A DNA stretch of 64,000 nucleotides from a virus. Lineage: Duplodnaviria; Caudoviricetes. Shown here in pieces: positions 1-62,092 of this stretch. Position numbers and translations under genes: made by a program. The notes under the pieces were generated by a model that did not search any database, was not told the origin of the DNA, and saw only the letters and a list, made by a program, of their open reading frames with translations. The DNA lies in the IMG/VR virus record IMGVR_UViG_3300045002_000015, positions 1 through 64,000 of that record. One strand, 5' to 3'. How positions within the stretch are numbered: position 1 is the stretch's first letter; the number at the start of each line of letters is the position of its first letter.

Positions 1-91
1 ACTCAGCCGGTGGTGCGGCCAGATAGATCATCTCGGTCGATGGATTGGCGGTCTGCCAGTAGACCGTGAACACCATGCGCAGGTGGGTCAT
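1..91 (-). CDS. Hypothetical phage protein, 5' part only (runs off window)
   Basis: ATG at 91 overlaps TGA of 88..657 and follows GGAGG; reads MTHLRMVFTVYWQTANPSTEMIYLAAPPAE. Confidence 0.4.
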   Translation of the reverse strand, partial: MTHLRMVFTVYWQTANPSTEMIYLAAPPAE

Positions 92-657
92 CCGTTCCTC
101 CGGCTTCGCACAATGAACGTGACGGCCCGCCGCATCTGGCCAGTGTCGATCAGCGGTTTGAGGTTCGCCTGTCCCCAAGCCACGACGTCCTGCCCGGCCC
201 GCCGCATGCGGCGCAGCCGGGTCTGCCCGGCCTTGGTTTTGCGCAGCCGCGCGATGATGGTGCGTTCGGAGAGCGGCGCGAACGGACCGGTGGTGATCTT
301 CTGCTGCGCCCCGGTCGCCCCGGTCTGACCGGCCGCGCGTAACGCATTCAGCATGCCGTCACCATCGCCGCGCAGCGCCAGCGTGCCGGCCTGGCGCAGG
401 TAGCGCTGGATTTGATCCAGCTTGTCCGCCACGCCGGGGCGAAGCCAGGGCCGCGCCGGCAGGTTATGCTCGGGGACGCCGTGCTCGTGCACGTAGCCGA
501 GCAGGGCGTTCGAAGCCGTGCCGGTGCGCGCGCTGGTATCGGCGGGGATGCCGACCAGCACCTCCTTCGCCGCCAACTCGGCGATGCGCCGTTGAATGAC
601 GGCGCGGTTGTCCACGACGCGCTGAACCTGCTGGCGGACGATGGGCCGCGTGGCCAT
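88..657 (-). CDS. Virion morphogenesis / tail-completion protein (HK97 gp10 / Mu gpG-like)
   Basis: VLVGIP, HEHGVPEHNLPARPWLRPG and KPLIDTGQMRRAVTF motifs; lies downstream of head-tail adaptor. Confidence 0.65.
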   Translation of the reverse strand: MATRPIVRQQVQRVVDNRAVIQRRIAELAAKEVLVGIPADTSARTGTASNALLGYVHEHGVPEHNLPARPWLRPGVADKLDQIQRYLRQAGTLALRGDGDGMLNALRAAGQTGATGAQQKITTGPFAPLSERTIIARLRKTKAGQTRLRRMRRAGQDVVAWGQANLKPLIDTGQMRRAVTFIVRSRRNG

Positions 658-658
658 G

Positions 659-883
659 CTAGATCAGCGACGCCCGCACCACGCGCCTGATCTTGTCGCA
701 GACATCGTCGGCCAGTTCCATCCTGACCTCGGCCGGGCATAGCGTGATCTCATGCGCGGTCAGGAAGCTGAACACCTGGATGTACTGCGCCGCCGACATG
801 TCCAACTGCCGCGCGGCTTCCTCGATCGCGCGGACATTCCGGAAGCCTTCATGCGCCGTCCGGCGATCGTATTCGGCGCCCAT
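659..883 (-). CDS. Hypothetical phage protein
   Basis: 74-aa ORF exactly filling the gap between flanking co-oriented genes. Confidence 0.5.
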   Translation of the reverse strand: MGAEYDRRTAHEGFRNVRAIEEAARQLDMSAAQYIQVFSFLTAHEITLCPAEVRMELADDVCDKIRRVVRASLI

Positions 884-1462
884 TCAGAACCCGCCGCCAT
901 AGGGCCAGTCGCCCATATCCGGGCCGGAGAAGCCCGGCCCGGAGAACGGCGGCAGCGGGCCATAGCCGATCTGCACGCCGCCCATACCGACCATCTGCGA
1001 CAAGCGATACCACTCCATGCCATAGGTCGTCAGACCCCAAAGCCCGCCGCCCTTGTCGGCCATCTGCGACAAGATTGAGGTGTCGTAGCTGGCCGAGACG
1101 GAGCCGACCGATTTCGATCCCATCGGGAAGGGGATGCGCCCAGCCATGCCGGACTTGCCGCGTTGATTGGCGAAGACCGCCAAATGGTGCGCGATAAATA
1201 GATAAACGCCCAGTTCGTAGTAGTCGCCCCAGCGGTAGGGATCGAGATTGTTGGTGGCGATGGTCAGCCACATCTGGCGCTGCGGCGCCGGGTAGCGCCC
1301 GGCGTCGTTGAATTCGGGAAAGGCGGCCAGGAACTTCGGATCGGAGACCACCGGCCCGGGGATCACGGCGGAGTCCGCTGTGACCGCCCCTTGGCCCTGG
1401 ATCGCGGCCGCGCCGGCCTCGATCACCTGGGCTTCGCCTTCGACGCTGCCAGTGCCGCTCAT
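884..1462 (-). CDS. DUF4054-family head-tail adaptor
   Basis: FLAAFPEF, LFIAHHL, SKSVGSVSASYD, WGLTTYGMEWYRL motifs; downstream of MCP. Confidence 0.8.
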   Translation of the reverse strand: MSGTGSVEGEAQVIEAGAAAIQGQGAVTADSAVIPGPVVSDPKFLAAFPEFNDAGRYPAPQRQMWLTIATNNLDPYRWGDYYELGVYLFIAHHLAVFANQRGKSGMAGRIPFPMGSKSVGSVSASYDTSILSQMADKGGGLWGLTTYGMEWYRLSQMVGMGGVQIGYGPLPPFSGPGFSGPDMGDWPYGGGF

Positions 1463-1959
1463 CGCCGGCCATCCAGCGCCCGGGCGAGCGTATCGCGGGC
1501 GCTGAGGCCATCGCGGACGCCCTTGCGCACCTGGGTAAAGAAGTCGCCGCCATTGGCCAGCTTTGCCTCCTCGGCGACCGCCAAGCCTTGCGAGAGCGCA
1601 TCGCCCGGCGACCTGCCGGCGCGCGCCGCATCGCCCACCGCGCGGATGAAGGCGGCGCGATCGCCGTGCTCCCGATGTGCTGTCATGGCTGCCTGTCCGA
1701 TCTGTTTGCGCCGCGCCGAGGCGGCAATGGCCCGCGCGCGCTCCTCGCTCAAACCCGGATGCTCGCGCCGGATCGCCGCCTCGATCTCGGCCGTTGGCTT
1801 GTCGCGCGAGCGCCGCGCGATGAAGGCATCGAGATAGCCGGCCGCATCGCCGCGGCGTTTGACGGCATAGGCGATCGCCACTGCCTGCTTTTGCGGTTTT
1901 CCTGCTTTCATCTCTTTGCGGATGATTTCCGACATGCTCATGCTGGGATCGAGCGGCAT
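1459..1959 (-). CDS. Conserved-type phage protein
   Basis: N-terminal IIRKEMKAGKPQKQAVAIAY motif typical of small phage head-cluster proteins; stop overlaps next start. Confidence 0.6.
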   Translation of the reverse strand: MPLDPSMSMSEIIRKEMKAGKPQKQAVAIAYAVKRRGDAAGYLDAFIARRSRDKPTAEIEAAIRREHPGLSEERARAIAASARRKQIGQAAMTAHREHGDRAAFIRAVGDAARAGRSPGDALSQGLAVAEEAKLANGGDFFTQVRKGVRDGLSARDTLARALDGRR

Positions 1960-1996
1960 TTGGAATACGCCTTTCGGGTTGAGAAGCAGACGGCGC

Positions 1997-2795: not shown

Positions 2796-3812
2796 CTAGA
2801 TGCCGTCGCGATACGAGATGGTCTCGGGATACACGAACTCGACGCAGCCGAGACGGCCCCAGTAGGTCGTGATCTGATAGATGGAGCGATATTCGAGCGG
2901 CGTGCGCTGCAACGGTACCAGCGGATAGCGTACCCGGTCGCGATCGCGCGTATAGGCAACCATCCGATCGAGACCGCCGGCGCCGAGGCCGGTCAGCCAC
3001 TTGACCGCCTGGATATTCAGCGGCCGACCGTTGGCGGCATTGCTGATCGAGTTGGCGCGCAGGAATTCCAGCACCGAGATATTGCCGGCGCTGGAGACCT
3101 TTTGCGACACCAGATAGCCGTACTGCGGGGGTGGCACGCGTAACTCGGACGGCACCACGGCAAAGCCGGAATTCGTCCATGTCGTGGTCAGGATTTCGTT
3201 GACGTCGGCCAATATCTGATCCGGCGTCTTGTTGGCCCATTGCGTCGTGCTGCCGGTGCCGGTCGCCGCGACGTTCGTTGTAGATACGACCGTATTGTTG
3301 AACAGGCCGTATTTCCCGTAGGTGGTGTCGCCGGTATACACCATCTCGTCGATATCCATCTGGTATTTCAGACGGAGACCGTCGTATTTTTGCGTGTCGA
3401 TCGGCCGGCCGATCTTCTGCGCCGAGGCAAGCTCGGGGAGCGTGTATTTCAGCTCCATGCCCCAGAGATACAGAGGATTGGTGGTCTTGCCGATATCAAG
3501 CGCCACGCCGGTGATCGCGTTGGTATCGGTGTTCATCCAAGCCTTGCCGGCAGGATTGATGCCGCCGGGCGAGGCGAACGTGGAATTGGTGAACGACGAC
3601 ACCTCGTCGGCCACCGTGACGTCCTCGCGCAGATCGATATCGCGACCCCAGGTGACCGTGGCCAGCGGCTCGTGCAGCGTCGGGTCGAGCCGTTCCAACT
3701 CTCCGATCAGAAAAGCGCCGGTGCTGTCGATCGTGAGTTGATCGAACGTCATCATCTCGTCGCGCGTGAAGATGCGACGCCGGGCCGGGATGATCGCGGG
3801 GCGCGACAGCAT
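2796..3812 (-). CDS. Major capsid protein (DUF2184 family)
   Basis: MTFDQLTIDSTGAFLIGELERLDPTLHEPL, TWGRDIDLREDV, C-terminal GCVEFVYPETISYRDGI; start at ATG 3812 after GGGGAG (3851 is an alternative). Confidence 0.9.
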   Translation of the reverse strand: MLSRPAIIPARRRIFTRDEMMTFDQLTIDSTGAFLIGELERLDPTLHEPLATVTWGRDIDLREDVTVADEVSSFTNSTFASPGGINPAGKAWMNTDTNAITGVALDIGKTTNPLYLWGMELKYTLPELASAQKIGRPIDTQKYDGLRLKYQMDIDEMVYTGDTTYGKYGLFNNTVVSTTNVAATGTGSTTQWANKTPDQILADVNEILTTTWTNSGFAVVPSELRVPPPQYGYLVSQKVSSAGNISVLEFLRANSISNAANGRPLNIQAVKWLTGLGAGGLDRMVAYTRDRDRVRYPLVPLQRTPLEYRSIYQITTYWGRLGCVEFVYPETISYRDGI

Positions 3813-3892
3813 GGTCGACTCCCCGTAATCGATTCTCGCCAAGTTGCTCATTGACGTGCCATTTCTCCTGTCAGCGGACCAAACACCCCGCG

Positions 3893-4390
3893 TTAGATGT
3901 TGAACATGATTTCGGTAATTCCGTTGGCATCCGCCGGCCCCATGAACTGCGCCGGGATGGCGAAGCCGTTGCCGGACGCGGGCGAGGCCGCTTCGAGCCC
4001 GCCCTGGATGTGCGAGCCGGTGGCGGTCTGCGACCAGACGTACACCGGCGCGCCCTTGACGGCGGCGACGCCGCCCGAGAGCACGACCGACATGTAACCG
4101 CGCCGCAGCACGTCGCACGGCCCAGAGGCGGGCGGTGTGCCGGTGTTGATCGGATCGGTCGACGCGTTGGCCGGAAAGGGACGCACCAGCAGGCCATAGA
4201 CTGCGCTGTCGGTCGCCGCGACGGCGCGCACCTGGTGGCTGGTGGCATCCATCACCACCGGGATGCCATAGGCGGCGGGATGGCCAGAGGAACCGCTTGG
4301 GGTGATAACCTGCGCCTCGACCGTGTGATGTTGAGCGCGATTAACGTCCCCCGCAATCCCCGCTGGCATGCGATATAGGAACGAAGCCAA
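3893..4390 (-). CDS. Capsid cement/decoration protein
   Basis: YRMPAGIAGDVNR, AYGIPVV, DVLRRGYMSV, FMGPADANGITEI; between protease and MCP; TTG start after AAGGAGG. Confidence 0.7.
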   Translation of the reverse strand: MASFLYRMPAGIAGDVNRAQHHTVEAQVITPSGSSGHPAAYGIPVVMDATSHQVRAVAATDSAVYGLLVRPFPANASTDPINTGTPPASGPCDVLRRGYMSVVLSGGVAAVKGAPVYVWSQTATGSHIQGGLEAASPASGNGFAIPAQFMGPADANGITEIMFNI

Positions 4391-4402: not shown

Positions 4403-6091
4403 TCAGTGGACCTGGTATTTCTCGCGGTTGCGCGCGTTGATCTCGGCCGGCGTCGGCGCCCGGCCGTTGCCGCGAACCCCCTGGCTGCTCGGCCGCACGC
4501 GGCCGAACTCGTGGTTGTTCGCCTGCCGCACCAGTTCGGAGGCGCCGTTGAAGACGTCGGCGATGCGGTCGCAGGACATCTGGCCGAAATTCGCCGTCCG
4601 GCCACCCAGCACGGCGTCGATGTAACCGTGCTTGGTCTGGTCGCGATACGCTGCGTTCAGCGCATTGCGCCGCACGGCGCACATCGCATCGTGCGTGGTT
4701 TGCGCCGGACGCGCGCCATCGAAGGTCGGCAAGGTCAGGCCGCCGGCCAGCAACTCGGCCCGCGCCATGGTCTCCTGGAACTCGGTACGCAGCGAGGTTG
4801 AGTCGCCCACGAACTGCTGCCGCGCGCCTTGCTGATCGCCGGTCATGCGGCGGCGGTCGCCGGTGCGCCTCCGGTCGCCGGTCTGGTTCGTGCCGGCGCC
4901 AAGCTGCGGGCCGTCACGCCCGCGGCCCTCGCTGCCCTCGCCATAGGTCAGCATGTTGTCCGGGTCCTGATCCGGCTCGTCCGATGGTGGCGAAGTCGGC
5001 GGCTCCTCGTCGCGCGAGCGGCGGTCGCGGACACGGCGCCGATCGCCCAGCATACGATCGCCGTTTTCCTCTTCGCCGAGGTCGCCATTGCCGTTGTCGT
5101 CGTCGCCCTGGGCCAGCAGCACGATCGCCTGCTCGATGCGGTCGAGGCGCTGCATGATCTCCTGCATCATCGGATTGGCGCCCGATGCCTGGCCGGTGGG
5201 CTTGGCGCCGATATCGGGATCGCCCTCCGGCTCGTCGCTCACGCCGCCGCCGCTGATCGATGGCGTGCTGCCGCTGCCGCCGCCATGCAGATTGATGGAG
5301 ACGTGGGTATCGCCGGTCCGGCCGTCCTCGCTCTTGGTGCCTTCGCCGGAGACCTGCTCGCCGAGCAATTCCGGGTCCTTGGCCAGTTCCTCAAGCTGAT
5401 CGTGAAACCCGCTCTCGTCGCGCGAGCGGAAAGCTGCGAGCAGCGCGTCACGTATGGAGCGCCGCCGCCCGTCATTGACACGCACCCGTGTCGCCATTTC
5501 CTCGTCTCCTATGCTGCATAAAGGCCCGCAACGCCCGCGATTGACGAGCGCCACGTGGTTGCCGACGATGCTGTATTGCCGGCCGACGCCATCGCCGGTC
5601 TGCTCGTATTCCGCGTCGTATCCCGCCGAGACTTCGCGCTTGCCGGTGCGGATATCGGCAATTGCCAGCGGATCGGTAATCAGCAGATCGGCGTACAGAA
5701 AGCTGTTGTCGAAATTGACGCCGTCGCCGCGCCGCGGATTGAGCACCACGCCCACCGCATACTGGCGATGATTGGTCGGCGTGACCTTTTCCGACGGGTG
5801 TTCGTTGGTGACCGGCTTGCCGTTGAACGAGGCGATGCTTTCGGGGCGGAACACCTCGCTGGCGTCGCGCTGGATGGTGATTAAACCATCCTTGCCGCGC
5901 AGCCCCGGCAGTTCGTGCTCACCGTAAAGCTGCTGGCCGATACGGGCGATGGGCGTCGCCTGGCAAAGCAGGAAGCCCTCGGGCGTGACCGATTGGTGTT
6001 CGCCAAGCGCCTCGGTCGTGTAGAAGCGTTTCGGCTCCGGCGACCGTCCGGCCGGCGCTAGCAGTTCCTCCACCTCGGTGGTATCGCGCAT
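4403..6091 (-). CDS. DUF2213 prohead protease / scaffold protein
   Basis: TPEGFLLCQATPIARIG, SFNGKPVTNEHP, REVSAGYDAEY, GNHVALVNRGRCGPLCSIGD; low-complexity scaffold C-terminal half. Confidence 0.85.
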   Translation of the reverse strand: MRDTTEVEELLAPAGRSPEPKRFYTTEALGEHQSVTPEGFLLCQATPIARIGQQLYGEHELPGLRGKDGLITIQRDASEVFRPESIASFNGKPVTNEHPSEKVTPTNHRQYAVGVVLNPRRGDGVNFDNSFLYADLLITDPLAIADIRTGKREVSAGYDAEYEQTGDGVGRQYSIVGNHVALVNRGRCGPLCSIGDEEMATRVRVNDGRRRSIRDALLAAFRSRDESGFHDQLEELAKDPELLGEQVSGEGTKSEDGRTGDTHVSINLHGGGSGSTPSISGGGVSDEPEGDPDIGAKPTGQASGANPMMQEIMQRLDRIEQAIVLLAQGDDDNGNGDLGEEENGDRMLGDRRRVRDRRSRDEEPPTSPPSDEPDQDPDNMLTYGEGSEGRGRDGPQLGAGTNQTGDRRRTGDRRRMTGDQQGARQQFVGDSTSLRTEFQETMARAELLAGGLTLPTFDGARPAQTTHDAMCAVRRNALNAAYRDQTKHGYIDAVLGGRTANFGQMSCDRIADVFNGASELVRQANNHEFGRVRPSSQGVRGNGRAPTPAEINARNREKYQVH

Positions 6092-8426: not shown

Positions 8427-9242
8427 TCACGCCGTATAACTGGCCGGCAGCACCGGTTCGCAAATGCATCTACAGCGGTATATACAGCCAGGCAAGGCGC
8501 GCTCGCCGCGCGTGCCGGCGATCGGCGGCTCGTCCCAGCGATGAAAGGTGCCATCCAGTTTGCGGTGGCTGCCGCGCTCCAGCGTGTTCAGCCGGGCGAA
8601 GTCGGGCGAGCCGATCTCCGGGCGGGTTTTGTAATCCATCACCGCCCGCCAGATAAATCCCTCGCTGCCGAGCGCCTGTGCGCGCACCCGCTGGAACGTG
8701 GTCGCCGCCCGGCCCACCTCGGTCACCGCAATCAGTTCCGCCTTGCTCCGGCTCACGTCCGCCTGGCGGCGGATTTCCGCAGCGATCTCGCCCGCCCGCC
8801 GGCCCTCATACAGCGCCGCCGTCGCCAGTTCATGCACCCGCTTCGCCGCATCGAGCGGTATCGAGGTGATCAGGTCCACCTGCCGCGCCATGAGGTCCTG
8901 GTAGGCACCGCCGATCGGGGCGCTGTTCAGTTCCGCCTCGATCGCCTCACCGAGAAGCCGCGCGTGCCGCCGCCAGGCGCGCCTGTCACGGCGCGCGGTT
9001 TCGGCCAGCATCCTTGCCGCCACCGCCCGCGCCCAAGGCGCCAGGACCGCCGCGTAGCGCTGTAGCGTGGCCACCAGGGCGGCGACCTGCGTCGCATCCT
9101 CGGGGTCGAACCCGCTGGCCACGTGGCCGACCTGCTGGGCGATCTTGCGAAGCTGCGCCCGGTAATAGCGCTCGCCGGCCGCCCGGACGCGCTGCCAGAC
9201 CGCCCGCTGGCGGCGGGTCTCGCGCCGGAGCGGTTCGGCCAT
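8427..9242 (-). CDS. Phage head morphogenesis protein (SPP1 gp7 / Mu gpF)
   Basis: AELIAVTEVGRA, FIWRAVMDYKTRP, HRKLDGTFHRWDEPP, PGCIYRCRC. Confidence 0.9.
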   Translation of the reverse strand: MAEPLRRETRRQRAVWQRVRAAGERYYRAQLRKIAQQVGHVASGFDPEDATQVAALVATLQRYAAVLAPWARAVAARMLAETARRDRRAWRRHARLLGEAIEAELNSAPIGGAYQDLMARQVDLITSIPLDAAKRVHELATAALYEGRRAGEIAAEIRRQADVSRSKAELIAVTEVGRAATTFQRVRAQALGSEGFIWRAVMDYKTRPEIGSPDFARLNTLERGSHRKLDGTFHRWDEPPIAGTRGERALPGCIYRCRCICEPVLPASYTA

Positions 9243-10225: not shown

Positions 10226-10831
10226 CTACCTTGCCAGCCGCAGCACCGACCACCATGCGACGAGGCCCATCAGCAGCCCGGAAAAGGCGAACAGCGTATC
10301 GGGATTGGCAATCAGCGTGGTGCCCGACATCAGGCACCAGAAAAAGCCGGACATCGCCAATCCGATGCAGCGCGGGATCAGGCTGCCGCGCTTGTCCTGC
10401 CGACTGTAAACCATCGCCAGGCCGAGGATTTTCATCGCGGCAGCGGCCAGGGCGAAGGCTGCCCAGGCCCGTTCATAGCCCGCCAGTCCGATCGCCGAGC
10501 GATAGGGCGCGTTGATACTGGTGAAATGATAGGGCGAGAGCCAGAGCACCGCCGTCGCCCAGAGCGAGGACAGCGATAGCAGTATCTCGATGACGACGAT
10601 ATCGGTCTGGCGCAGCAGATAGAGCGGCGCGCGCGCGATGCGCAGCAATTCATTGAGTTCGGCAATCTGGATCGACATGCGCTCAAGATCATGCGCCATG
10701 CGATCAAGCTCGCGGATCGTGCCGACGCGAAACTCGACAATGCCACGATCGCCGGTCTCGACGCGCGAGCGAAAGTCGGAGTCATCCGGGGTAATAGCGA
10801 CTGGCCGGCGCGGCGGATCGGTCTCGCTCAA
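10226..10831 (-). CDS. Multi-pass membrane protein (about 4 TM)
   Basis: Soluble N-terminus then four hydrophobic segments; TTGA overlap with upstream gene. Confidence 0.65.
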   Translation of the reverse strand: MSETDPPRRPVAITPDDSDFRSRVETGDRGIVEFRVGTIRELDRMAHDLERMSIQIAELNELLRIARAPLYLLRQTDIVVIEILLSLSSLWATAVLWLSPYHFTSINAPYRSAIGLAGYERAWAAFALAAAAMKILGLAMVYSRQDKRGSLIPRCIGLAMSGFFWCLMSGTTLIANPDTLFAFSGLLMGLVAWWSVLRLAR

Positions 10832-15098: not shown

Positions 15099-15284
15099 TT
15101 ACATGGTGCGCGGGCGCGGCAGCGGCGCGCGGCACTTCGGGCAGATCACCCGCCGCGCGAGGCTTTCCTCGATCTCGGATGCCGCACACTCGCTGACGTG
15201 GGAAAAGCCGCAGGTGCAGACCCAGAGGAAGCGCGCCTTTGGCTCCATCTGGCCCCCCCACGCATAGTCCTCGTCGAGCATCAC
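15099..15284 (-). CDS. Small Zn-ribbon protein
   Basis: CTCG and CPKC; start overlaps portal stop. Confidence 0.5.
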   Translation of the reverse strand: MMLDEDYAWGGQMEPKARFLWVCTCGFSHVSECAASEIEESLARRVICPKCRAPLPRPRTM

Positions 15285-38883: not shown

Positions 38884-38887
38884 GACG

Positions 38888-42407: not shown

Positions 42408-42411
42408 CCTT

Positions 42412-42816: not shown

Positions 42817-42820
42817 TCAG

Positions 42821-43090: not shown

Positions 43091-43093
43091 CGA

Positions 43094-44194: not shown

Positions 44195-44207
44195 GGGAGG
44201 AGGCAGT

Positions 44208-48520: not shown

Positions 48521-49899
48521 AGCGATTGATGGCGATTGCCGCCGCGTTGGCGCTGCTCGGTGCCGCACCACCCGCCCAGCCGCCGTGCCAGGGCACATCG
48601 AACGGCTTCACTGTGACGCAGGGCGGCTTCGTCGATCCCGCCGGCCATCCGTGGCACGCGCGCGGCGTCAACATGGACACCAAGGATGCCATGCCGATGG
48701 CGAACGGGCAGTTTTTCCAACACTTCCCCGGCACAACATTCATCCGGCTCGCCGCCAACTGCGATACCGATACCACGGCGGTGCTCGATCCGATCGTGCT
48801 GGCGGTGACCGGATCGGGCCGCGTGCTCAGCCTGGAGGATCATCACGATACCCAGGGCGGTCGGAACACCGCCTGCTACCAGGCATGGGGCAAACGCTAC
48901 GCCAGCAATGCGCTGGTGTGGTACGAGACGCCGAACGAGCCGCCCGCGAGCATGACGGGAGCGCCGCAGACGGCGATCATCAACGCGCTGCGCGCGGCCG
49001 GCGTGACCGCGCCGATCGGCATTCAGCCGATCTGCTGCGAGGACCAATCGAATGTGCCCGGCGTGCTGGCCAGCGTGACCTCGAAGGCCAATCTGTACGT
49101 CAGCATGCACGTCTATTGCGGCGATGGCGCGGATGCCTCCTGCCCCACCAGCTACCCGAAGAGCGCGAGCCAGCCCGCCTACGGCCTGTTCCATCTGATC
49201 GATGAGTTCGGCGATGCCGCCGACGGCATGAAGCAGAACCAGTACGGCCCGGCGCTGGTGCGGGCGATGACCGATTTGGCCGACGGCATCTTCTGGCATT
49301 GCTGCAACGGGTTCCATGAAACCGACTCCGCCTGCACGGATCAGGGCTGCGGCGGCCTGACACCGGACGGCAACGTGCTCAAGCCGTGGCTCTCGTCGAC
49401 CGGCGGGAGCTGCCCGCTCAGCGCCCAGACCTCGGCGCCATCGGCTGCCGCGCAGGCCGAGCTGGAACCACTGCAACAGCAGATCGACAGCCTGACCCAG
49501 GGCGCCGCCGCGCTGCTCAACCGCGCGAACCAATGGCTGGCGCCGAGTGCTGAAACAGCCTCGTCGCCGCCACCCCAGGCCGCCCAGGCGGCGCCGCCAC
49601 CCGTCCCGGTAAGTCCGGCCGCGCAGGCCAGCCCGGCGCCCCAGCGCGTTCAGAGCCTCCTGGCGGGGGCGCCCCAGACCAGCGCCGCCATGCAGTCGGC
49701 GCTTCAGGACCTTCAGAACGCGCTCCAGCAGTTGGGGACCGCCGATCCAGGCGCCACCGATGCGAATGCCGGGGCGGCGATGCCGGCCGCGCCGGCCGCG
49801 CCGACGAAGCAGCCAGCCAGCGAGCGCCCGGCCGGTATCGGGCAGGATGCCTATCACCCGCCTGCCGGCTGGCATGAAGGCGACGGCGATGACGACTAG
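48517..49899 (+). CDS. Secreted GH5 (cellulase-family) glycoside hydrolase with A/Q/P-rich tail
   Basis: Signal peptide; ARGVN, FIRL, LEDH, WYETPNEP, SMHVY, IDEFG, GIFWH. Confidence 0.8.
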   Translation: MKRLMAIAAALALLGAAPPAQPPCQGTSNGFTVTQGGFVDPAGHPWHARGVNMDTKDAMPMANGQFFQHFPGTTFIRLAANCDTDTTAVLDPIVLAVTGSGRVLSLEDHHDTQGGRNTACYQAWGKRYASNALVWYETPNEPPASMTGAPQTAIINALRAAGVTAPIGIQPICCEDQSNVPGVLASVTSKANLYVSMHVYCGDGADASCPTSYPKSASQPAYGLFHLIDEFGDAADGMKQNQYGPALVRAMTDLADGIFWHCCNGFHETDSACTDQGCGGLTPDGNVLKPWLSSTGGSCPLSAQTSAPSAAAQAELEPLQQQIDSLTQGAAALLNRANQWLAPSAETASSPPPQAAQAAPPPVPVSPAAQASPAPQRVQSLLAGAPQTSAAMQSALQDLQNALQQLGTADPGATDANAGAAMPAAPAAPTKQPASERPAGIGQDAYHPPAGWHEGDGDDD

Positions 49900-53041: not shown

Positions 53042-54076
53042 GTGGCCTGCTTCGATCATACCTATGGCGTCGAAATCGAGTGCTATCTGCCGGAAGGCTC
53101 CACAGCGGCCGACGCGGCGGCCGCAATCAATGCGCGGCTGGGCGCCACCGGGCGCTGCGCGGCCGAGAGCTACAATCACCTCACCCGCGACCATTGGAAA
53201 ATCGTTCCCGACGGCTCGCTCGGCGACTACGCTCGCGGCATTGAGGTGGTCTCCCCAGTCCTGCGCGGTGAGGCGGGGCTTGAGGCGCTGAGCCGCGTCA
53301 TGGACGCGCTCGAGGACTTCGGCTGCACGGTATCGCGCCGCTGCGGCCTGCACGTCCATGTCGGGATCGGCCCACGGCGAACGGACTTCTTCCGGCGCCT
53401 GCTCAAAGCCTACGCTCATTTCGAGCCGGTGATCGACAGCCTGATGCCGCCATCGCGGCGAGCCAGCGCCAATCTCTACTGCCGCTCCGTTACCCATATC
53501 GCGTTCACCGCCATCGATGCGGCCGTCAGTCTCTCGACCCTTATAGGGCTGATGAGCGCGCGCGCCGAAGCGCGCTATCACAAGCTGAACCTCGCGGCGC
53601 ATCGGCGCTACGGCACGGTCGAATTCCGCCAGCATTCGGGCACGCTCGATGCGACCAAGGCGCGCAATTGGACGCTGCTTTGCCTGCGCCTCGTCGATGC
53701 GATCATACAGGGCCGCGATCCGCGCGCGGCGGCCGTCGCGCCGGGACAAATCAACCGCGCCCCAGCGGACAGCAAGGCCCGGCTGGTCGGTGACCTCATG
53801 CTGCGTCCCCAAGGCGTAAGCCGGCCCGAGGCGATGGCGGCAACCGGATGGCCTTCGATCTCGCTGCCGCAGCAGGCGGCGATATGCGGGCTTTCCTTCA
53901 CCACCCAGCGAACTGGTAATCGGACCCGCTATTTCGCCCGCGCCGCGCAGGCGTCATCCGCCACGCCCGCGACGCTGGAGGCGCTGTTGCAGTTCTGCGG
54001 CTGCGCACCACCGGAATGCGCTTACTTCCGCGCCCGTGCCCGGAACCTCTCGCCTCAGGTGCAGTGGGCCGCTTGA
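53042..54076 (+). CDS. Putative amidoligase (COOH-NH2 ligase type 2) with DUF3489-like winged-helix insertion
   Basis: TYGVEIEC, WKIVPDGSL, IEVVSPVL, CGLHVHVG, RYHKLNL, TVEFRQHSGT; SKARLVGDLMLRPQGVSRPEAMAATGW. Confidence 0.85.
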   Translation: MACFDHTYGVEIECYLPEGSTAADAAAAINARLGATGRCAAESYNHLTRDHWKIVPDGSLGDYARGIEVVSPVLRGEAGLEALSRVMDALEDFGCTVSRRCGLHVHVGIGPRRTDFFRRLLKAYAHFEPVIDSLMPPSRRASANLYCRSVTHIAFTAIDAAVSLSTLIGLMSARAEARYHKLNLAAHRRYGTVEFRQHSGTLDATKARNWTLLCLRLVDAIIQGRDPRAAAVAPGQINRAPADSKARLVGDLMLRPQGVSRPEAMAATGWPSISLPQQAAICGLSFTTQRTGNRTRYFARAAQASSATPATLEALLQFCGCAPPECAYFRARARNLSPQVQWAA

Positions 54077-56531: not shown

Positions 56532-56540
56532 TGGCCGGTT

Positions 56541-56765
56541 CTACCGCCAGCCAGGGTCGCCGATGTAGCGTTTTTCGAACGCGATGCGGTCGCCGTCGAC
56601 CACGGCATGGTAGTAAGCCGCCCCGGCCGCCACCACGACCTCGCGGACCCGCCCCGGCAACACATGCGGGCGGACCCGCCGGTACAGCCGCCGCTTATCG
56701 TCATGCACGACCCAGCCATTGCCCTTGGGCAGCGGATGCACCGCAACGACTGCGGCGCGTCTCAC
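56541..56765 (-). CDS. Small hypothetical protein
   Basis: Start overlaps relaxase stop. Confidence 0.45.
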   Translation of the reverse strand: MRRAAVVAVHPLPKGNGWVVHDDKRRLYRRVRPHVLPGRVREVVVAAGAAYYHAVVDGDRIAFEKRYIGDPGWR

Positions 56766-59700
56766 CGCCCGATCCCCCGCGACCGGTCCGCCCGCCGCTG
56801 CCGCCGGCTCGGCGCGGCGGCGCGCGGCGTGCGCTCCGGCGCGCGATCGCGCTCAATCGCCGCGGTCACCGCAGCGGTCGCCTGCCGGCGGACCACTTCG
56901 TGATCCACCGTGCGGCCTTCGGCATCCGCGCGCTCGATCCGGCTCCTGAACTCGAGTTCGATCACATCCGCCAGCATACCATCGTAGCCCTTCCCATCCG
57001 CGATCTGGCGCGCCCAGGCCGCCGCCTGCGGATCAAGTTGCGGCGCCGACTCCCGCGTCATCGGCCGCTCCGCCGCGGCGTGGTCGTGGCGCTCGATCGC
57101 CGCCACCACCGCATCCGTCGCCCGTTCCCAGAGCGCATCGTGATCCGCTGTGCGGCCCGCCGCCCGCTCGGCTTCCAGCCGGCTGCGGAATTCGAGCTGC
57201 ACCACATCGGCGAACATGCCTTCGTAGCCTTTGCCTTCGGCGATCTGGCGCGTCCACACCGCCACGCGAGGATCGATACGCGGCGCCTCCGGGCCGTCCC
57301 TAGCGGCCTCTGGAACAGCCGGGGTATGGGAAGGCGCCCCATGCCCACGCGGCCGCTGTGGCGCCCCTGGCGCCCGCGCGGCGCGGTCCCAGATCGCGCG
57401 CTTGGCCGCCACCGTCCCGCGCTTGACCACTTCGGCCATCCGCGTGAAGTCGGTCGCAAGCTGCTTCAGTTCCTGCCGCGCCAGATTGCGCGCCATATTG
57501 GTCACGATGAATTCCTGCACCGCCGCCCGCCGGGTGATCTGGTTGCGGGGATCGCCGATCGGCCGGCGCTCCTTGATCTCCTCGAGTTCCGCCCCCTGGC
57601 TGGTGATGATCCAGAACCGCCGCCGATGCCGCGATGCCGCAACATAGCCTTTCAGCCCGTTGACCGTCCGCGAGCCGTGCGGGTAGAGCGCCAGCGCCTC
57701 GGTCACGGTGTCGCCCTGGCGGCTGTCAATGGTCATGGCGTCGCCATAGGTCAACCTGATCCGCTCGCCGGTCTCGGGAAACCTGAACTGGTCCCACGGC
57801 ACCGAGGCAACCCGCCCCTTGGCCGTCCGCACCGTCAATCCATCGTCTCGGATCGCCGCCACCTCCACCACGCTGCCATTGTCGCCGATCCGGCCGATAT
57901 TGCCCCGCCCGAACCTGCCATAGCCGCGGTTGAACAGTCGCACCCGGTCACCCACCGCGATCGGCAGCCGGTATTCGGTGCCATGCTGATCAACGGCATC
58001 GAGGACCTTGGCATCGCCGCCGATCTCGCCCCGCGACTGGCGGCGCTCCCGGATCGCCGCACCGATCGCCAGCACATCGGCGTTCGTCGGCACGCTGATC
58101 CCGAACCGGTAGCCCGGCTCGGCGGCATGCGCGCGCGTCCGCTCGTCCCAAAGCTCGACGGCGCGCTGGATCGCATCCCTATGGTCGCCCGGCACCAGCA
58201 GAAGCGTCCCGTCAGCCGCCTTGTGCCGCAGCGCCTCAGCGATCGTCGCCTCGTCACCGGAGTGGAACTTGGCGACAAGCTCTGCCTCCTCGCGCCGCTG
58301 CCGGACGGTCTGCAACAGCGTCGGCAGCTTGCCGAGCACCACTTCGGCCAGCCGCAGTGAATTGCCCGCCTGAATCGGATTGCCCTGAAGTTCATGGCCG
58401 ATACCCACCAGCTTGAAGCCATGCGCATCGCGCAGCTTGGCCAGATCATTCATCATGGCTGTGCCGACCTGGGATAGCTCGTCGGCGATGACCACGGTGT
58501 TCTCGCCCACCGCGATCCTGCCGCGCGCGACGCCATAGGTGAACGCGGCAATCGCCTGCGAACGCTTGACGCCCGAGTCCTTGCCGGCATGCGCCTGCCG
58601 CCAGGGCACTGTCAGGTAAACGGTATCAAGCCCGCGCGCGTGCCACGCTTCCACAAGTGGGGTCAACACGGTCGTCTTGCCTACTCCAGCAGCGCCACGG
58701 CCGACCACGACGCCGCCCGCCTCGCCCAGCGCATGCGCCAGCCCGGCCTGCTCCGCCGTCAGCCTGATACCACTTTCGCGCGCGACTTTCTCGATCGCCT
58801 CGTCGATCTCCCGCGGTGTCAGCGCATGGCGCCTGTCGGTCGCGCCCTTTTTCAGCAAGGCCACGGTCTCCTGCTCCATCCGCAGGTGCTTTTCCGTGGT
58901 GAACCGCTGCCACAGGCTTTCGCCGTCGCGGCCCTCGCCGGGCGGCGCCGGCACCTTGCCCCACAACAGCGCAGTCCGCTCGCCATCCTGGGCAACGCCT
59001 TCGGTGCGGTACGCCTTGGTGAGCGCGGCAATATCGCGCCCCGGATCGTCGCTGATCCCGGCCTCGATCAGCCCTTCCGCAGCCGCGATGCGTGCCACCT
59101 CACCGCCGAAGACCGCGCGCCGGTCCAGTTCCGCCGCGAGTTGCGGCAGTGACCGCTCGAACGCCGCCCGCAAGCGCTCGCGCTGCCGCGCCAAGAACCG
59201 CTCCCGGCCGGGCCGTAGCACGCTGCGGTGGCGGTAACCCGCCGCCTCGGCCTGCCGGTTCCAGGCGTCGAATTGCGGCTGTTTGTCTTCCGAATGCTTC
59301 TCACGGGCGGCCGCAACAGACCGGTCAACCAGCCTGACCCGCTCCTCGACCGACAGCGTGTCCCAATCCAATCCTTGCTCGCGGGCAAAACCACGTGCCG
59401 CCTCATTGCCGTCCACCGTGCGCTTGCTGAACAACTCGACCGCCCAGCGCGGGATATCGCGCACCGCCGCCATCCGGGTCCGGTCCTCAAGGCCCGCATC
59501 AACGCCGTGCTCGCGCAGCCGACGCGCGAGAAACCCTTGATAAACCTTGCCGATCTCCTTGATCTGGCCATTCAGCCGCTTGCTGTCGATCGCGCCGACA
59601 TGCCCGCTCTCGGTCATGACCACGTTCGGCGTGATGCAGTGCGTGTGCAGGTGCATATCGCCGATCTGGCCCACCGCCTTCAGGATCGTGTTGTCCCGGT

Positions 59701-60250
59701 CGGCGATCTTGGCGACTGGACGGGCGGTATATTCCTCGAACTTCCACCACATCATGTGGCCTTGTTCGGCGCCTTTGCTGCCGCCGCGCCCGCGCCGCGC
59801 CCAGCCCGTGGTTTGTTCGAGGTAGGCCATGCTGCGGTCGACGGCGTAGCGGTGCGCTTCGAGGAAAATCCCCCGCTCGCGCTCGGTGGGCGCAAACGCC
59901 CAGGCGATCGAGACCGACTTCGGCGCATTCAGCGTGAAATCGTAATAAGTGATCTTCCCCTTCGCTTCGCTCGCCCGCTGGTATTGCTTGCCCTCGATGC
60001 GATCGCCATCGGCGCGCAGACCGCGCACCACGTTGGCCAACTCGCCCTGGGTAATTGGCCGCGCGGTATCGACGCCGAGCCGTTCGGCCAGCGGTGCGTA
60101 CGCCCCGTCGCGCGCCGTCCCTTGCACGGCCTTGCCGTAATAACCGGCCACCAGGTCGGCGACGGATGGCTCCTGCATGGCGACATAATATTTCGCGATC
60201 TCGCCAGCGGCGAAGCTCGTCGTGGCGACGCCATCGCGGAAGGTCAGCAC
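56762..60250 (-). CDS. trwC: MOB_F relaxase-helicase (TrwC/TraA-like)
   Basis: VLTFR start, KYY/GYY tyrosines, YDFTLNAPKSVS, DMHLHTHCITPN, GAAGVGKTT, IADELSQ, TVRQR, YGDAMTIDSRQGDTV; GTG 60250 after GAGG. Confidence 0.93.
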   Translation of the reverse strand: MLTFRDGVATTSFAAGEIAKYYVAMQEPSVADLVAGYYGKAVQGTARDGAYAPLAERLGVDTARPITQGELANVVRGLRADGDRIEGKQYQRASEAKGKITYYDFTLNAPKSVSIAWAFAPTERERGIFLEAHRYAVDRSMAYLEQTTGWARRGRGGSKGAEQGHMMWWKFEEYTARPVAKIADRDNTILKAVGQIGDMHLHTHCITPNVVMTESGHVGAIDSKRLNGQIKEIGKVYQGFLARRLREHGVDAGLEDRTRMAAVRDIPRWAVELFSKRTVDGNEAARGFAREQGLDWDTLSVEERVRLVDRSVAAAREKHSEDKQPQFDAWNRQAEAAGYRHRSVLRPGRERFLARQRERLRAAFERSLPQLAAELDRRAVFGGEVARIAAAEGLIEAGISDDPGRDIAALTKAYRTEGVAQDGERTALLWGKVPAPPGEGRDGESLWQRFTTEKHLRMEQETVALLKKGATDRRHALTPREIDEAIEKVARESGIRLTAEQAGLAHALGEAGGVVVGRGAAGVGKTTVLTPLVEAWHARGLDTVYLTVPWRQAHAGKDSGVKRSQAIAAFTYGVARGRIAVGENTVVIADELSQVGTAMMNDLAKLRDAHGFKLVGIGHELQGNPIQAGNSLRLAEVVLGKLPTLLQTVRQRREEAELVAKFHSGDEATIAEALRHKAADGTLLLVPGDHRDAIQRAVELWDERTRAHAAEPGYRFGISVPTNADVLAIGAAIRERRQSRGEIGGDAKVLDAVDQHGTEYRLPIAVGDRVRLFNRGYGRFGRGNIGRIGDNGSVVEVAAIRDDGLTVRTAKGRVASVPWDQFRFPETGERIRLTYGDAMTIDSRQGDTVTEALALYPHGSRTVNGLKGYVAASRHRRRFWIITSQGAELEEIKERRPIGDPRNQITRRAAVQEFIVTNMARNLARQELKQLATDFTRMAEVVKRGTVAAKRAIWDRAARAPGAPQRPRGHGAPSHTPAVPEAARDGPEAPRIDPRVAVWTRQIAEGKGYEGMFADVVQLEFRSRLEAERAAGRTADHDALWERATDAVVAAIERHDHAAAERPMTRESAPQLDPQAAAWARQIADGKGYDGMLADVIELEFRSRIERADAEGRTVDHEVVRRQATAAVTAAIERDRAPERTPRAAAPSRRQRRADRSRGIGR
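56846..57274 (-). repeat. Tandem duplicated ~64-aa domain in relaxase C-terminus (period 240 nt)
   Basis: DPRVAVWTRQIAEGKGYEGMFADVVQLEFRSR..AIERHD and DPQAAAWARQIADGKGYDGMLADVIELEFRSR..AIERD. Confidence 0.9.
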
Positions 60251-60324
60251 CGCTGCGCCTCGATGCCGGCCTCGGCGGGGTCCATTTCCGTACCCTAAAG
60301 CCCAGCGCGCGGCTTTTGCAACAG

Positions 60325-60350
60325 GCACCGTATGGTGCAATGGTCTGATT
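60325..60350 (+). promoter_or_regulatory. Candidate oriT / nic site (MOB_F, R388-like)
   Basis: GCACC-GTAT-GGTGC-AATGGTCT|GAT resembles recalled R388 GCACC-GAAA-GGTGC-GTATTGTCT|ATAG; in gap upstream of relaxase. Confidence 0.65.
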
Positions 60351-60458
60351 TTGTGACCGCCGCCTGGAACCGGCAAAATATCCGGGTTCACGGCACGCGG
60401 TGCGCAACCGAAGAACGCGGCTTGTGCAACCACGATTGCGTCTGATAGGATGTAACCA

Positions 60459-60881
60459 ATGGCGATAACCGACGCACTGGACCGGGCTTTGGCCCGGGCG
60501 CGGCGACGAGGCCGGGGACAGCGGGCGCGCTCGCCGCTGTTTCTGGCGATGATCGAGCGTGCGGCTCAGGTGACCGAGGCGCGGAAGGACGTGACCTGGC
60601 GCGGCCTGGCGGAGGAGCTGGCCGCCGAAGGGATCACCGGCCCGGGCGGGCGGGTGTACTCAGGCGCGGCCGTGAAGGGGGCGTTCTACCGCGCGCGGCA
60701 GGCGTTGGCTGCTGCGGGCGGGACGGTGGTGTTCGGCGCGGCGCCGAAGATTCGCAGGAAGCCAAGCCGCAAGGGGCGGGTCCGTGCGCGATCGGCGCCC
60801 GCTCTGCCGCAGGCCGATCAACCGGCGGCGATCGAGGAGAAGCCGCGGGTCCGCGACTGGCGCGATCTGATGCAGGAGTGA
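60459..60881 (+). CDS. Putative DNA-binding mobilisation/stability protein (StbA-like position)
   Basis: VTWRGLAEELAAEGI helix-turn-helix-like; divergent from relaxase. Confidence 0.6.
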   Translation: MAITDALDRALARARRRGRGQRARSPLFLAMIERAAQVTEARKDVTWRGLAEELAAEGITGPGGRVYSGAAVKGAFYRARQALAAAGGTVVFGAAPKIRRKPSRKGRVRARSAPALPQADQPAAIEEKPRVRDWRDLMQE

Positions 60882-60896
60882 GGGGAGGAAGGGGAT

Positions 60897-61673
60897 TTGG
60901 ACACACAGGTGACTGGCGCGCCGGTGGAGACGCGCCCGGTGCTGTTGGCCGCGTCCGGCCGTGGCCGGGTCGGCAAGACCGAGATGCTGGCCGTGGTGGC
61001 GCAACTCCTGGCCGAGGACGCGGGGTTCGAGGTCGAGGTCTGGGACTGCGACCCGGCGCGCGAGGTCGGCTCGCTGAGCGGACGCTTCAAGGGCGCCAAG
61101 CGCCCGCGCTCGGGCGACCTGGAGGATCGGCGGATTTTCCTGGAGGAGCACGGTCGCCGGTTGATGGAGGCGGCCGTGGACGGGCGCCCGTTCCATGCCG
61201 TGCTGGATGTGGGCGGTGAGGACCTGCTGTTGCCGCTGATGGATGCCGAGGTGGGCTTCGGCGAGTTCCTGTCGCGCGCCGGGGTATCATTCGTGGTCGC
61301 GCATGTGGTCGGCACCGACGATGCCGATCTGGACTACCTGCGCCGGGTCGAGAAGCTGGGCCTGATCCGCGCGACGCGCGGGGCGATCGTGCGGAACGAG
61401 GGGATGCTGCGGACGACGGAGCGGCGCGACGCGGCCTTCCAGCGGGTCAATGACGATCCGGTGGTGCGGGCGTTCACCAGCAAGGCGCGTGGCGGGCGGT
61501 TGCTGTCGATGCCGGCACTGGCGCCGGACGTGATGCAGGACGTCAAGGCGTCGGGCCAGACGTTCCGCGAGTATGCCACCGATCCCAAACGGTGCTGGGA
61601 CTTCCGCGCGGTCCGGGTGGCGCACTGGCTGGCCGGCTGCGAGGAGATGCGCCGGGCGATGCTGGGGCCATGA
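60897..61673 (+). CDS. ParA/StbB-like P-loop NTPase
   Basis: ASGRGRVGKT, WDCDP, VLDVGGED. Confidence 0.75.
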   Translation: MDTQVTGAPVETRPVLLAASGRGRVGKTEMLAVVAQLLAEDAGFEVEVWDCDPAREVGSLSGRFKGAKRPRSGDLEDRRIFLEEHGRRLMEAAVDGRPFHAVLDVGGEDLLLPLMDAEVGFGEFLSRAGVSFVVAHVVGTDDADLDYLRRVEKLGLIRATRGAIVRNEGMLRTTERRDAAFQRVNDDPVVRAFTSKARGGRLLSMPALAPDVMQDVKASGQTFREYATDPKRCWDFRAVRVAHWLAGCEEMRRAMLGP

Positions 61674-62092
61674 CGGAGAAGGTCGTCCGCCTGGCTCCGC
61701 CACCGACGGGTGCCGAGGACCGGGCGCGGAGCGTATTGGCGGAGTGTGGCCTGCGGCCCGGTGATCCGCCATTCGAGGCGTATATGGCGACGGCGCGGTC
61801 GATTGATGCGGCGGCGCGGCTGGGGGATCGCATCGAGGCGCTTGCGGCGCGGCTGGAGAAGGCGGGTACGCCGTTTGATCCGCGCGCCTATGAGATCATG
61901 CGGGCGACGCTGCGCCGCGCCGTGGGGGCCTTGGGCTGGCGCCGTGTGGCGGCTGCGTTTGCGGTGGGTCTGGTTGCTGGCGGGATCAGCGCCGGCATGG
62001 CGGTTTATTGGTGGCGTGATGTGCAATTGTGGCGGCATTGCCAGAGCGTGTATGCACTGTCGGCCTGCGCCGAGATTGCCGGCCGGCTTTGA
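61670..62092 (+). CDS. Membrane-anchored mobilisation accessory protein
   Basis: ATGA overlap; C-terminal TM. Confidence 0.6.
   Translation: MTEKVVRLAPPPTGAEDRARSVLAECGLRPGDPPFEAYMATARSIDAAARLGDRIEALAARLEKAGTPFDPRAYEIMRATLRRAVGALGWRRVAAAFAVGLVAGGISAGMAVYWWRDVQLWRHCQSVYALSACAEIAGRL

Follow-up and report, generated by a model that had tools for sequence, protein, structure and literature searches.

The window, as we call the whole 64,000-nucleotide stretch of DNA analysed here, comprises bases 1-64000 of a single 72,780-bp virus record of IMG/VR (IMGVR_UViG_3300045002_000015), which derives from a soil metagenome, is linear and is rated 85% complete by CheckV. We consider it likely that this DNA belongs to one coherent temperate tailed-phage genome with no integration module, carrying a selected module composed of a type IV secretion system (T4SS), a VirD4 coupling protein, a MobF relaxase and a ParA-like protein. 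On the best reading, a conjugation module is built into the genomes of a lineage of tailed phages that resemble phage-plasmids. The initial annotation, made from the letters of the window, had proposed a single replicon combining a tailed-phage genome with a complete conjugation system. This proposal is now supported by a second haplotype bridging both borders of the conjugation (tra) module, by composition, by synonymous divergence (dS) and by a 116-kb relative. On gene content, the window is most of the genome of a predicted temperate, myovirus-type tailed phage, and the predicted host is a soil alphaproteobacterium.

Genes were called by the frame signal of GC content at third codon positions (GC3) and proteins were scanned against Pfam, PHROGs and NCBIfam. 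Nonsynonymous divergence (dN) and dS were obtained by Nei-Gojobori counting for 38 window genes against the sister haplotype. The run-level comparison (Logan) concerned contigs only, and hence carries no depth or strand information. All material is metagenomic and the element is known here from its sequence alone. A search for near-identical DNA among deposited phages and plasmids returned only a 91-bp match (82.6% nucleotide identity) between the large terminase (TerL) gene and terminases of Rhizobium phages, and nothing in plasmids.

Phage and conjugation genes of the window

The features on which the argument rests are the following (window positions; HTH, helix-turn-helix; aa, amino acids; oriT, origin of transfer).

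88..1959, minus strand: head-tail connector genes (189 aa, 74 aa, DUF4054 192 aa, 166 aa; PF13262 DUF4054, E 1.7e-17)
2796..4118, minus strand: major capsid protein (MCP; Major_capside, PF09950, E 1.6e-84)
3893-4390, minus strand: decoration/cement-like gene (45% identical to the Phage_cement gene of the 116-kb relative)
4403..6091, minus strand: DUF2213/Pa193_gp24-type scaffold/protease protein (PF09979, E 3.6e-49; 45% identity to the 116-kb relative)
8427..9242, minus strand: Mu F-like head morphogenesis protein (MuF; PF04233, E 7.6e-12)
15281..17377, minus strand: portal protein fused to an InPase domain (PF06381, Phage_portal_3, E 1.3e-107; PF18823, E 1.9e-23)
21291..22586, minus strand: large terminase subunit (PF04466 and PF17288, Terminase_3/3C)
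24075..25983, minus strand: candidate small terminase (186 aa; 59% identical to the relative's gene directly upstream of TerL) and ParB_N-DNA methylase fusion (428 aa)
27715-29031, minus strand: VapE-like helicase (PF05272, E 5e-72)
29021-29881, minus strand: Prim-Pol (PF09250, E 1.4e-23)
32744-33019, minus strand: Cro/YdaS-like HTH gene heading the replication-late arm (HTH hits; P22_Cro/YdaS Pfam matches on the sister copy, L061)
33044-33454, plus strand: cI-like HTH gene heading the recombination-conjugation arm (HTH_19/HTH_3)
34648-35517, plus strand: PDDEXK exonuclease (PF12684)
34648..37078, plus strand: phage recombination module of exonuclease, HTH protein and 389-aa phrog_3657 protein (phrog_3657, E 6e-89)
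37627..37899, plus strand: XRE-family regulator directly upstream of the T4SS operon (PF01381, E 3e-14; also in sister contig L061)
38210..48520, plus strand: MPF_T-type T4SS operon, VirB1-VirB11 (Pfam/NCBIfam hits and gene order)
start of the 38210..48520 operon, plus strand: VirB1 (SLT; Pfam, above cut-off)
38689-38883, plus strand: VirB2-like 64-aa two-helix protein (size and hydrophobicity only)
39238-41655, plus strand: VirB4 (PF03135, 65-70 bits, cut-off 21; NF010427, E 1e-127)
44573-44756, plus strand: VirB7-like 60-aa lipoprotein (size, hydrophobicity and lipobox only)
48517..49899, plus strand: GH5-like glycoside hydrolase between VirB11 and VirD4 (PF00150, E 1.4e-4)
49760..51763, plus strand: VirD4/TraG-type coupling protein (PF02534, E 2e-33, 116 bits; PF12696; NF010394, E 5.6e-70)
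56762..60250, minus strand: MobF (TrwC-type) relaxase-helicase, ~1162 aa (PF08751, 132-137 bits; PF13604; NF041492, 148 bits, cut-off 100)
60251..60458, no strand: 208-bp divergent intergenic region between the relaxase gene and a 140-aa gene, candidate promoter/oriT (position only)
60459..61673, plus strand: 140-aa basic protein and 258-aa P-loop ParA/MinD-like protein, candidate partition pair (PF01656, weak, E 3.4e-5; GRGRVGKT P-loop)

Leftward from ~33.0 kb, the minus-strand arm passes from early through replication and packaging to head and connector genes, and its operon exits at position 1. Its early part holds, in order, the Cro/YdaS-like gene, a 171-aa gene, a 531-aa DNA methylase and a GcrA-like regulator. 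Prim-Pol, the VapE-type helicase, the ParB_N-methylase fusion, the candidate small terminase, TerL and a GH5-like 587-aa protein follow. The head genes then run from the portal-InPase through 589- and 631-aa proteins without assignment, MuF, a DUF2382 protein, the DUF2213 scaffold/protease and the cement-like protein to MCP, whose true start is probably downstream of that of the longest open reading frame (ORF). The plus-strand arm starts at 33,044 with the cI-like HTH gene and continues through small genes, the PDDEXK exonuclease, an HTH protein, the 389-aa protein, a 142-aa protein, XRE, the T4SS and the GH5-like gene to VirD4. The two HTH genes, with 24 bp between their longest ORFs, form a putative divergent repressor/Cro pair, assigned from HTH matches with no operators identified. 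Pfam matches bore out the packaging, capsid and replication genes of the initial annotation and agree with its candidate lysogeny-switch genes; domain hits and spacing over 34353-51763 bore out its exonuclease/annealase arm running co-directionally into XRE, virB1-virB11 and virD4.

This layout is lambdoid in its logic: the Cro-like gene leads into replication, packaging, head and tail, and the cI-like gene into exonuclease/annealase, XRE, VirB1-B11 and VirD4. In lambda, xis/int occupies the place where the window has conjugation genes. As the cI-like arm runs through exonuclease/annealase before XRE, VirB1-B11 and VirD4, the conjugation genes stand at the position of lambda xis/int. The 389-aa phrog_3657 protein is annealase-like by its position; it was found in 58 IMG/VR loci, with the exonuclease alongside in 50. 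These 58 loci were considered as relatives of the element and set aside, the exonuclease/annealase pair being all they had in common.

By MPF_T/MOB_F criteria in the style of CONJscan/MOBscan, the window contains a MOB_F relaxase, VirB4 with a coupling protein, and the MPF_T accessory set. The T4SS genes are ordered VirB1, VirB2-like, VirB3, VirB4, VirB5, a 141-aa protein, VirB6, VirB7-like, VirB8, VirB9, VirB10 and VirB11. Pfam matches exceeded the cut-offs for VirB1, B3, B5, B6, B8, B10 and B11; that of VirB9 (CagX) was weak and below cut-off (E 5.9e-4), and its orthologue on a related contig, L060, has PF03524. The slot between VirB11 and VirD4 is also occupied by a glycoside hydrolase elsewhere, with a full PF00150 call in L060 (13049-14539) and a 666-aa GH16 in L062 (9919-11919). 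As a separate observation, this rare T4SS lineage includes a secreted glycoside hydrolase, which may remove polysaccharide so that mating pairs can form, in the manner of phage depolymerases.

The relaxase gene is convergent with the T4SS. Its likely start is a GTG near 60,250, which matches the 1162-aa sister protein, and at the N-terminus two YY pairs line up with TrwC around its catalytic Tyr18/Tyr26. Where the gene encodes the C-terminal part of the protein, an internal 199-nt direct repeat (56849-57287; 72% identity, 240-nt spacing) corresponds to a duplicated protein segment. A relaxase and a candidate oriT had both been annotated: the relaxase stood (NF041492, 148 bits), and the oriT could be traced no further than the 208-bp region at 60251-60458, which holds two copies, 108 nt apart, of the 15-nt direct repeat CGCGGCTT(T/G)TGCAAC. 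The expectation that phage-type genes resume on the far side held only loosely; found there were the 140-aa gene, the ParA-like gene and mini-gene arrays, one 82-aa member of which occurs in 21 viral contigs.

Joint inheritance of the two modules

Between 34353 and 51763 the genes are tightly packed and co-directional, mostly overlapping or a few bases apart, and the largest gaps (107 and 84 bp) flank the XRE gene. A scan of 32.3-38.4 kb for promoters and terminators showed no terminator on the plus strand from the recombination genes to virB, with counts near chance. The phage-tra junction at 37.1-38.2 kb had been described as free of integrase, attachment-site (att)-like repeat and obvious GC step, and it proved to be so. 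GC content is flat across 37-38 kb (0.65-0.67). It lies at 0.63-0.72 up to ~62 kb and at 0.53-0.61 from there to the record end, the step from 0.66 to 0.57 falling at ~62.1 kb, away from the junction. Tyrosine (PF00589) and serine (PF00239) recombinase domains were found in no frame of the 72,780 bp, 12-40 kb of the genome lying outside the record; the same domain search recovers TrwC and VirB4 in this record. No att-like direct repeats bracket the tra module, where only imperfect GC-rich chance repeats occur. The record contains no detected tRNAs. Codon usage, which the initial annotation had suggested comparing across the junction, matched between phage and tra segments (relative synonymous codon usage, r 0.96-0.98). 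Similarly, tetranucleotide correlations were 0.91-0.95 among the early phage, late phage, T4SS and relaxase segments, and the arrays stand apart (r 0.68-0.76).

We then compared the window with a second haplotype of ~96% identity, separately assembled (Joint Genome Institute, JGI, sample 3300045142), which spans both tra boundaries.

Window 30434-44144: contig L061, 96.7% identity
Window 46735-62157: contig L145, 96.4% identity
Window 1-6284: contig L063, 95.9% identity

This sister haplotype may share the soil series (run X3) with the window; it is independent as strain and as contig, not as habitat. Pooled over phage genes, dS was 0.103 and dN/dS 0.129; pooled over tra genes, the values were 0.114 and 0.104. 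VirB1, B4, B5, B6 and B11 each showed a dN/dS of 0.03-0.06, and the head, packaging and connector genes were intact with 0-0.35 per gene. No broken ORFs were seen in the phage head/packaging/replication set or in the VirB1-B11/VirD4/MobF set, in agreement with the earlier remark that the major phage and tra frames carry no clear frameshift. Since dS is equal and dN/dS low in both modules, the two have the same divergence time and purifying selection keeps both. Neither of them has the look of something newly arrived or in decay.

Tail genes and ends of the record

The record is a fragment: its left end lies inside the head-tail connector genes and its right end inside a mini-gene array. Extending the contig had been proposed as a way to find tail genes. 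Contig L063 runs 5.8 kb past window position 1, and this extension holds genes for a neck terminator (PF23961), a sheath of DUF3383 type (E 2e-143), a tube protein matching KPP10_Orf10 and a tail assembly chaperone, followed by the first part of a tape-measure-like gene. Of the virion and packaging set, the window itself encodes TerL, portal, MuF, scaffold, MCP and connector, and L063 adds neck, sheath, tube, chaperone and tape measure; the DNA covered ends before any baseplate, fibre or lysis gene. The tail is not absent but is predicted to lie beyond the contig end, and the phage is of predicted myovirus type. At the other end, Logan contigs of the source run cover 61-72.8 kb, one of them, 12,951 b long, overhanging the record by 6,434 b. 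Because L063 extends the left end and this Logan contig the right end, the record is merely truncated and the genome measures at least ~85 kb; its size is probably 100-116 kb.

A diverged 116-kb relative

Close relatives of the relaxase are few. One of them, P0012 (58% identity), is encoded on both of two nearly identical contigs from two samples, Ga0642625_00272 (116,120 b) and Ga0642624_00259 (116,035 b). Together with this relaxase and a T4SS, they carry the portal-InPase P0257, ParB_N, TerL, MuF, a Pa193_gp24 scaffold, a cement protein and MCP. Identities to the window are 70% for MCP, 60% for the portal-InPase (P0257/P0149), 57% for TerL, 59% for the TerS-like protein and 58% for the relaxase. 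The initial annotation had also suggested a search for relatives with the same phage-tra junction; the element found has homologues of both halves in the same circular order.

Around the relaxase of the relative, the T4SS is convergent, 146-aa and ParA-like genes are divergent, and two divergent mini-gene arrays surround a recombinase-type hub. The 140-aa/ParA-like pair of the window has its counterpart at the same position beside the relaxase, at 25% identity. Beyond the arrays lies the end of a long operon, in which a fibre-tail adaptor domain of GP4 type (PF23148) and very large proteins are encoded along with homologues of the window's 589- and 631-aa proteins. The T4SS of the relative (L146, 13237-23006) comprises TrbI, TrbH, CagX, VirB8 and a TraF-like Peptidase_S26, with SLT at the relaxase end.

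The same genes are offset by 8,977-9,902 b between the two contigs, whose lengths differ by 85 b, so that what begins one contig must stand at the far end of the other. As the start points are shifted while the lengths are nearly equal, the relative would be circular or circularly permuted, and judging from these shifts the 116-kb contigs are probably circular. Its circular order reads TerL, portal, head, 44 kb unseen, fibres, arrays, ParA-like, relaxase, T4SS, 17 kb unseen, and TerL again. Joining the ends of the window record through the tail module gives an identical order.

Distribution of the secretion system and of the phage clade

The T4SS lineage of the window is rare, with 8 VirB4 matches in 5.8 billion proteins. 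VirB4 as a single query found no close relatives in IMG/VR or GTDB. With an alignment as query, GTDB gave matches of ~36% identity in Bosea, Falsiroseomonas and Roseicella, none of them with phage neighbours, and the nearest genome-encoded VirB4 and relaxase stand at 36-40% identity. A relative at 52% has Gp80-family and Methyltransf_21 genes nearby, which resemble the fibre region of the 116-kb element.

Relatives of the portal protein often lie on contigs of 95-121 kb (13 clusters), and of the best 120 the majority have PF18823. One relative, complete and with terminal repeats, measures 92 kb and another, rated 100% complete, 106.8 kb. Since portal relatives sit on 95-121 kb contigs, a hybrid of 100-116 kb falls within the capsid class.

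The wide occurrence of the portal-InPase fusion suggests that soil phages of ~100 kb form an extensive clade that has been little described. G001, a complete 92-kb phage of 41% GC, was rejected as a close relative, having only head and sheath genes in common with the element. For L230, a Logan contig of 116,226 b with portal P0173, no link to the 116-kb JGI element could be demonstrated. It is a related ~116-kb phage (portal 46-56%, TerL 49%) that encodes a type IB topoisomerase, a NusG-like gene, a class II ribonucleotide reductase and, between portal and MuF, a 663-aa protein with an ADP-ribosyltransferase-toxin domain.

Two possible routes of transfer and their alternatives

A simple model would be a stable, dual-route lineage of soil phages, in which a plasmid prophage of ~100-116 kb spreads by conjugation from living lysogens and as virions after induction. 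We put this forward tentatively, as a possibility for which the gene content speaks nearly as much as it leaves in doubt. Within the same, equally tentative proposal, the lineage would keep its relaxase/partition/leading-region block over long divergence and exchange its secretion apparatus. The element would be maintained as a low-copy circular plasmid prophage, replicated by Prim-Pol/VapE and partitioned by the ParA-like gene. The oriT nicked by the relaxase would probably lie within the intergenic region at 60.25-60.46 kb or close to it, the single strand would be passed to a neighbouring cell by VirD4 and the T4SS, and the mini-gene arrays beside the relaxase would probably enter first, as a leading region. 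Upon induction, the same genome would be replicated, packaged by TerL into the capsid of a clade holding 92-120 kb, and released as virions. Should this be true, these phages would be the first family of 'conjugative phages' from nature, in contrast to a cointegrate of recent origin.

Several observations weigh against this model and against a phage lineage with a built-in conjugation module. Related IMG/VR phage records had VirB4 in 0 of 40 cases and TrwC in 0 of 45, including the complete 92-kb and 106.8-kb genomes; because of these counts, the conjugation module is seen as confined to a sub-lineage. The closest T4SS relative with context, L060 (VirB4 69%), has unannotated, non-phage genes upstream, and PHROGs gave nothing useful for these or for the large unknown proteins. 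No tblastn match was found between the T4SS of the 116-kb relative and the VirB proteins of the window, and the two systems are not orthologous; on the conjugation side, window and relative share only the relaxase, the ParA-like gene and the arrays. As the secretion systems do not match and the relaxases are 58% identical, secretion genes were exchanged or acquired twice while the relaxase block was conserved. In the metal site of the relaxase, HxH is kept and the first His of the triad aligns with Glu. The R388 nic 14-mer had no match with up to 3 mismatches, and an inverted-repeat search likewise gave no oriT. ParA-like is a weak assignment (E 3.4e-5), and its Walker A motif is atypical. Finally, the record of the window is unclosed, its circularity being taken from the relative, and the data are all metagenomic.

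These points leave room for other explanations. The absence of a closed record, the other neighbours of the T4SS lineage in L060 and the many related phages without T4SS or relaxase would suit two elements in tandem, namely a prophage of a chromosome or megaplasmid and an integrative and conjugative element (ICE) or integrated plasmid inserted beside or within it, each moving alone; the record is a linear fragment, and phage-ICE tandems are already described (PMC13651849). We find such a tandem quite unlikely. No integrase, resolvase or att-like repeat occurs in the 72.8 kb, the junction has no compositional step, dS is equal in the two halves, and the 116-kb relative has both halves in the same order, its permuted assemblies leaving no room for flanking chromosome. 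A chimera of a phage contig and a plasmid contig could in principle arise in an unclosed, short-read metagenomic assembly. However, the ~96% haplotype crosses both boundaries, and since it reproduces them we take a chimera to be excluded; the Logan contigs of the source run and the two assemblies of the diverged relative, with the same linkage, make it scarcely credible. Of the contrary outcomes named in the initial annotation, att-flanked ICE borders, halves occurring only apart and a chimeric assembly were looked for, and none was encountered.

The element could also be a conjugative plasmid that captured a phage structural module and makes no infectious virions (a defective prophage, or a particle like a gene transfer agent or tailocin), so that conjugation is its sole route of self-transfer. 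In favour of this, lysis genes and the complete tail module fall outside the contigs, the head module has additional enzymes inserted in it, and a plasmid would accommodate large size and arrays that vary in length between strains more easily than a phage under a headful limit. Nevertheless, head, packaging and connector genes are intact with a dN/dS of 0.13 pooled over phage-side genes (a domesticated particle would also show purifying selection), the sister strain has sheath, tube, chaperone and tape-measure genes, the cI/Cro-type switch and phage replication genes are kept, and complete phages of this clade have genomes of matching size. We therefore judge a captured module unlikely. A last alternative, that the T4SS-relaxase set mobilises other DNA, secretes protein or forms a pilus or adhesin for the lysogen, would fit the lack of a recognised oriT on the element, the His-to-Glu change of the relaxase and the glycoside hydrolase in the T4SS operon, unusual for plain conjugation systems. 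Such a role appears very unlikely to us in view of a MobF relaxase above its curated cut-off, with both catalytic Tyr pairs and accompanied by VirD4, which is the signature of conjugative DNA transfer, and conserved between two diverged members while the T4SS was exchanged. Moreover, relaxases of MOB_F plasmids act in cis on an oriT beside their own gene.

Comparison with known elements

Phages and conjugative elements are treated as two separate ways of self-transfer, which differ in cost, host range and size limits. According to a 2025 review, an element spreading both as virus particles and by conjugation has not been found. The known phage-plasmids (P1, N15, SSU5 and VP882-type) are without conjugation genes (PMC12282955), and conjugation domains are only sporadic in putative phage-plasmids (2025 preprint, 10.1101/2025.11.07.687105). 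Like phage-plasmids, the phage of the window is temperate and tailed, has no integrase, carries partition-like and replication genes and is presumably extrachromosomal, and it has a relative of characteristic genome size. Unlike them, it has VirB1-B11, VirD4 and a MobF relaxase, and its plasmid state is inferred.

The conjugation genes resemble those of MOB_F/MPF_T plasmids (R388 TrwC, pKM101) and of the Bosea, Falsiroseomonas and Roseicella contigs in the TrwC plus AAA_30 relaxase, VirD4, the order of VirB1-B11 and the relaxase convergent with the T4SS. In contrast to those plasmids, the window has GH5 inside the operon and no R388-like nic site, and its system is embedded in a phage genome. 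The E. coli element p1002-1 was described as a "conjugative phage-plasmid" resulting from "an ancient plasmid fusion event" (SegMantX preprint, 10.1101/2025.03.14.643293); its parents, a known conjugative plasmid and a known phage-plasmid, are still separate in closely related E. coli (10.1101/2025.03.14.643293). It likewise joins phage-plasmid-type genes and a conjugation system in one replicon, whereas the halves of the window share composition and divergence, and a relative whose proteins are ~58-70% identical preserves their linkage. In Streptococcus, phage-ICE tandems are reported to form in the chromosome by site-specific accretion with integrases (PMC13651849). In these tandems, phage and conjugation genes are also linked and potentially co-transferred; unlike in them, no integrase or att was found in the window record. 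What sets the present case apart is a proteobacterial VirB/MobF system, the lack of an integrase in the record, the population-genetic evidence of co-inheritance and the diverged syntenic relative.

An element keeping both machineries under selection would escape a receptor-limited host range through conjugation and the need for cell contact through virions. It would also blur metagenomic classifiers of viruses and plasmids, the record of the window being filed as a virus. Such an element would offer a system for studying trade-offs: how the limits of capsid size bear on 24 kb of conjugation genes, how a phage repressor controls mating genes, and whether the shuffled arrays serve as a leading region.

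Accessory genes and mini-gene arrays

The remaining features of the window are listed below.

10828..14489, minus strand: two large proteins of 631 and 589 aa, role unassigned (the 589-aa one with an alpha-amylase C-terminal-like domain)
17969..19732, minus strand: 587-aa protein between terminase and portal (weak GH5-like match, PF00150, E 2.7e-5)
30157..32191, minus strand: GcrA-like regulator and 531-aa N6/N4 DNA methylase (PF07750, PF01555)
53042..54076, plus strand: Amidoligase_2 protein in the accessory stretch between VirD4 and relaxase (PF12224, E 3e-38)
62100..64000, no strand: start of the lower-GC (0.57) mini-gene arrays, which continue to 72,780 in the record (GC, ORFs)

The GcrA-like protein and the N6/N4 methylase are a predicted regulator/methylase pair of alphaproteobacterial type; in all, Pfam recognised two N6_N4 methylases among the phage genes. 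In the stretch between VirD4 and the relaxase, the Amidoligase_2 gene is accompanied by a gene of GGACT/AIG2 type (gamma-glutamyl cyclotransferase-like) and by a small HTH gene (sister L145, 15317-17206). We considered paralogy of the GH5-like proteins as a link between the phage and tra modules and rejected it: the proteins of 17969-19732 and 48517-49899 have no significant similarity, and the same applies to the 589-aa protein.

From 62.1 kb onward only mini-genes are found, in two divergent arrays, and colinearity with the sister stops at 62,157, where GC falls. The arrays are cassette-shuffled between strains: cassettes of 150-560 b at 88-99.7% identity (most at least 95%) stand in a different order in L145 (1-8100), and contigs of run X3 show many joints that skip or go back precisely in the array region (62100-72780). 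An 82-aa mini-gene at 71855-72103 of the record has relatives (55-80%) in 21 IMG/VR viral and 36 metagenome contigs with otherwise unrelated neighbours, and is thus, by this spread, a putative widely travelling small phage gene. As a route for extending the right end it was abandoned, since these loci have only that gene in common and gave no sister-strain contig.

The 631- and 589-aa proteins are 35% and 50% identical to proteins of 596 and 588 aa that adjoin the tail-fibre genes of the 116-kb relative. The block is located between portal and MuF in the window and at the end of the tail-fibre operon in the relative (L148, 5126-9183); because of these different positions, the two-gene block has moved within the virion module. 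The fibre operon of the relative also encodes, on L149, a 628-aa protein (10729-12615) with partial matches of intein/LAGLIDADG type, followed by a free-standing HNH endonuclease (13620-14240); these genes look like selfish insertions inside the virion module.

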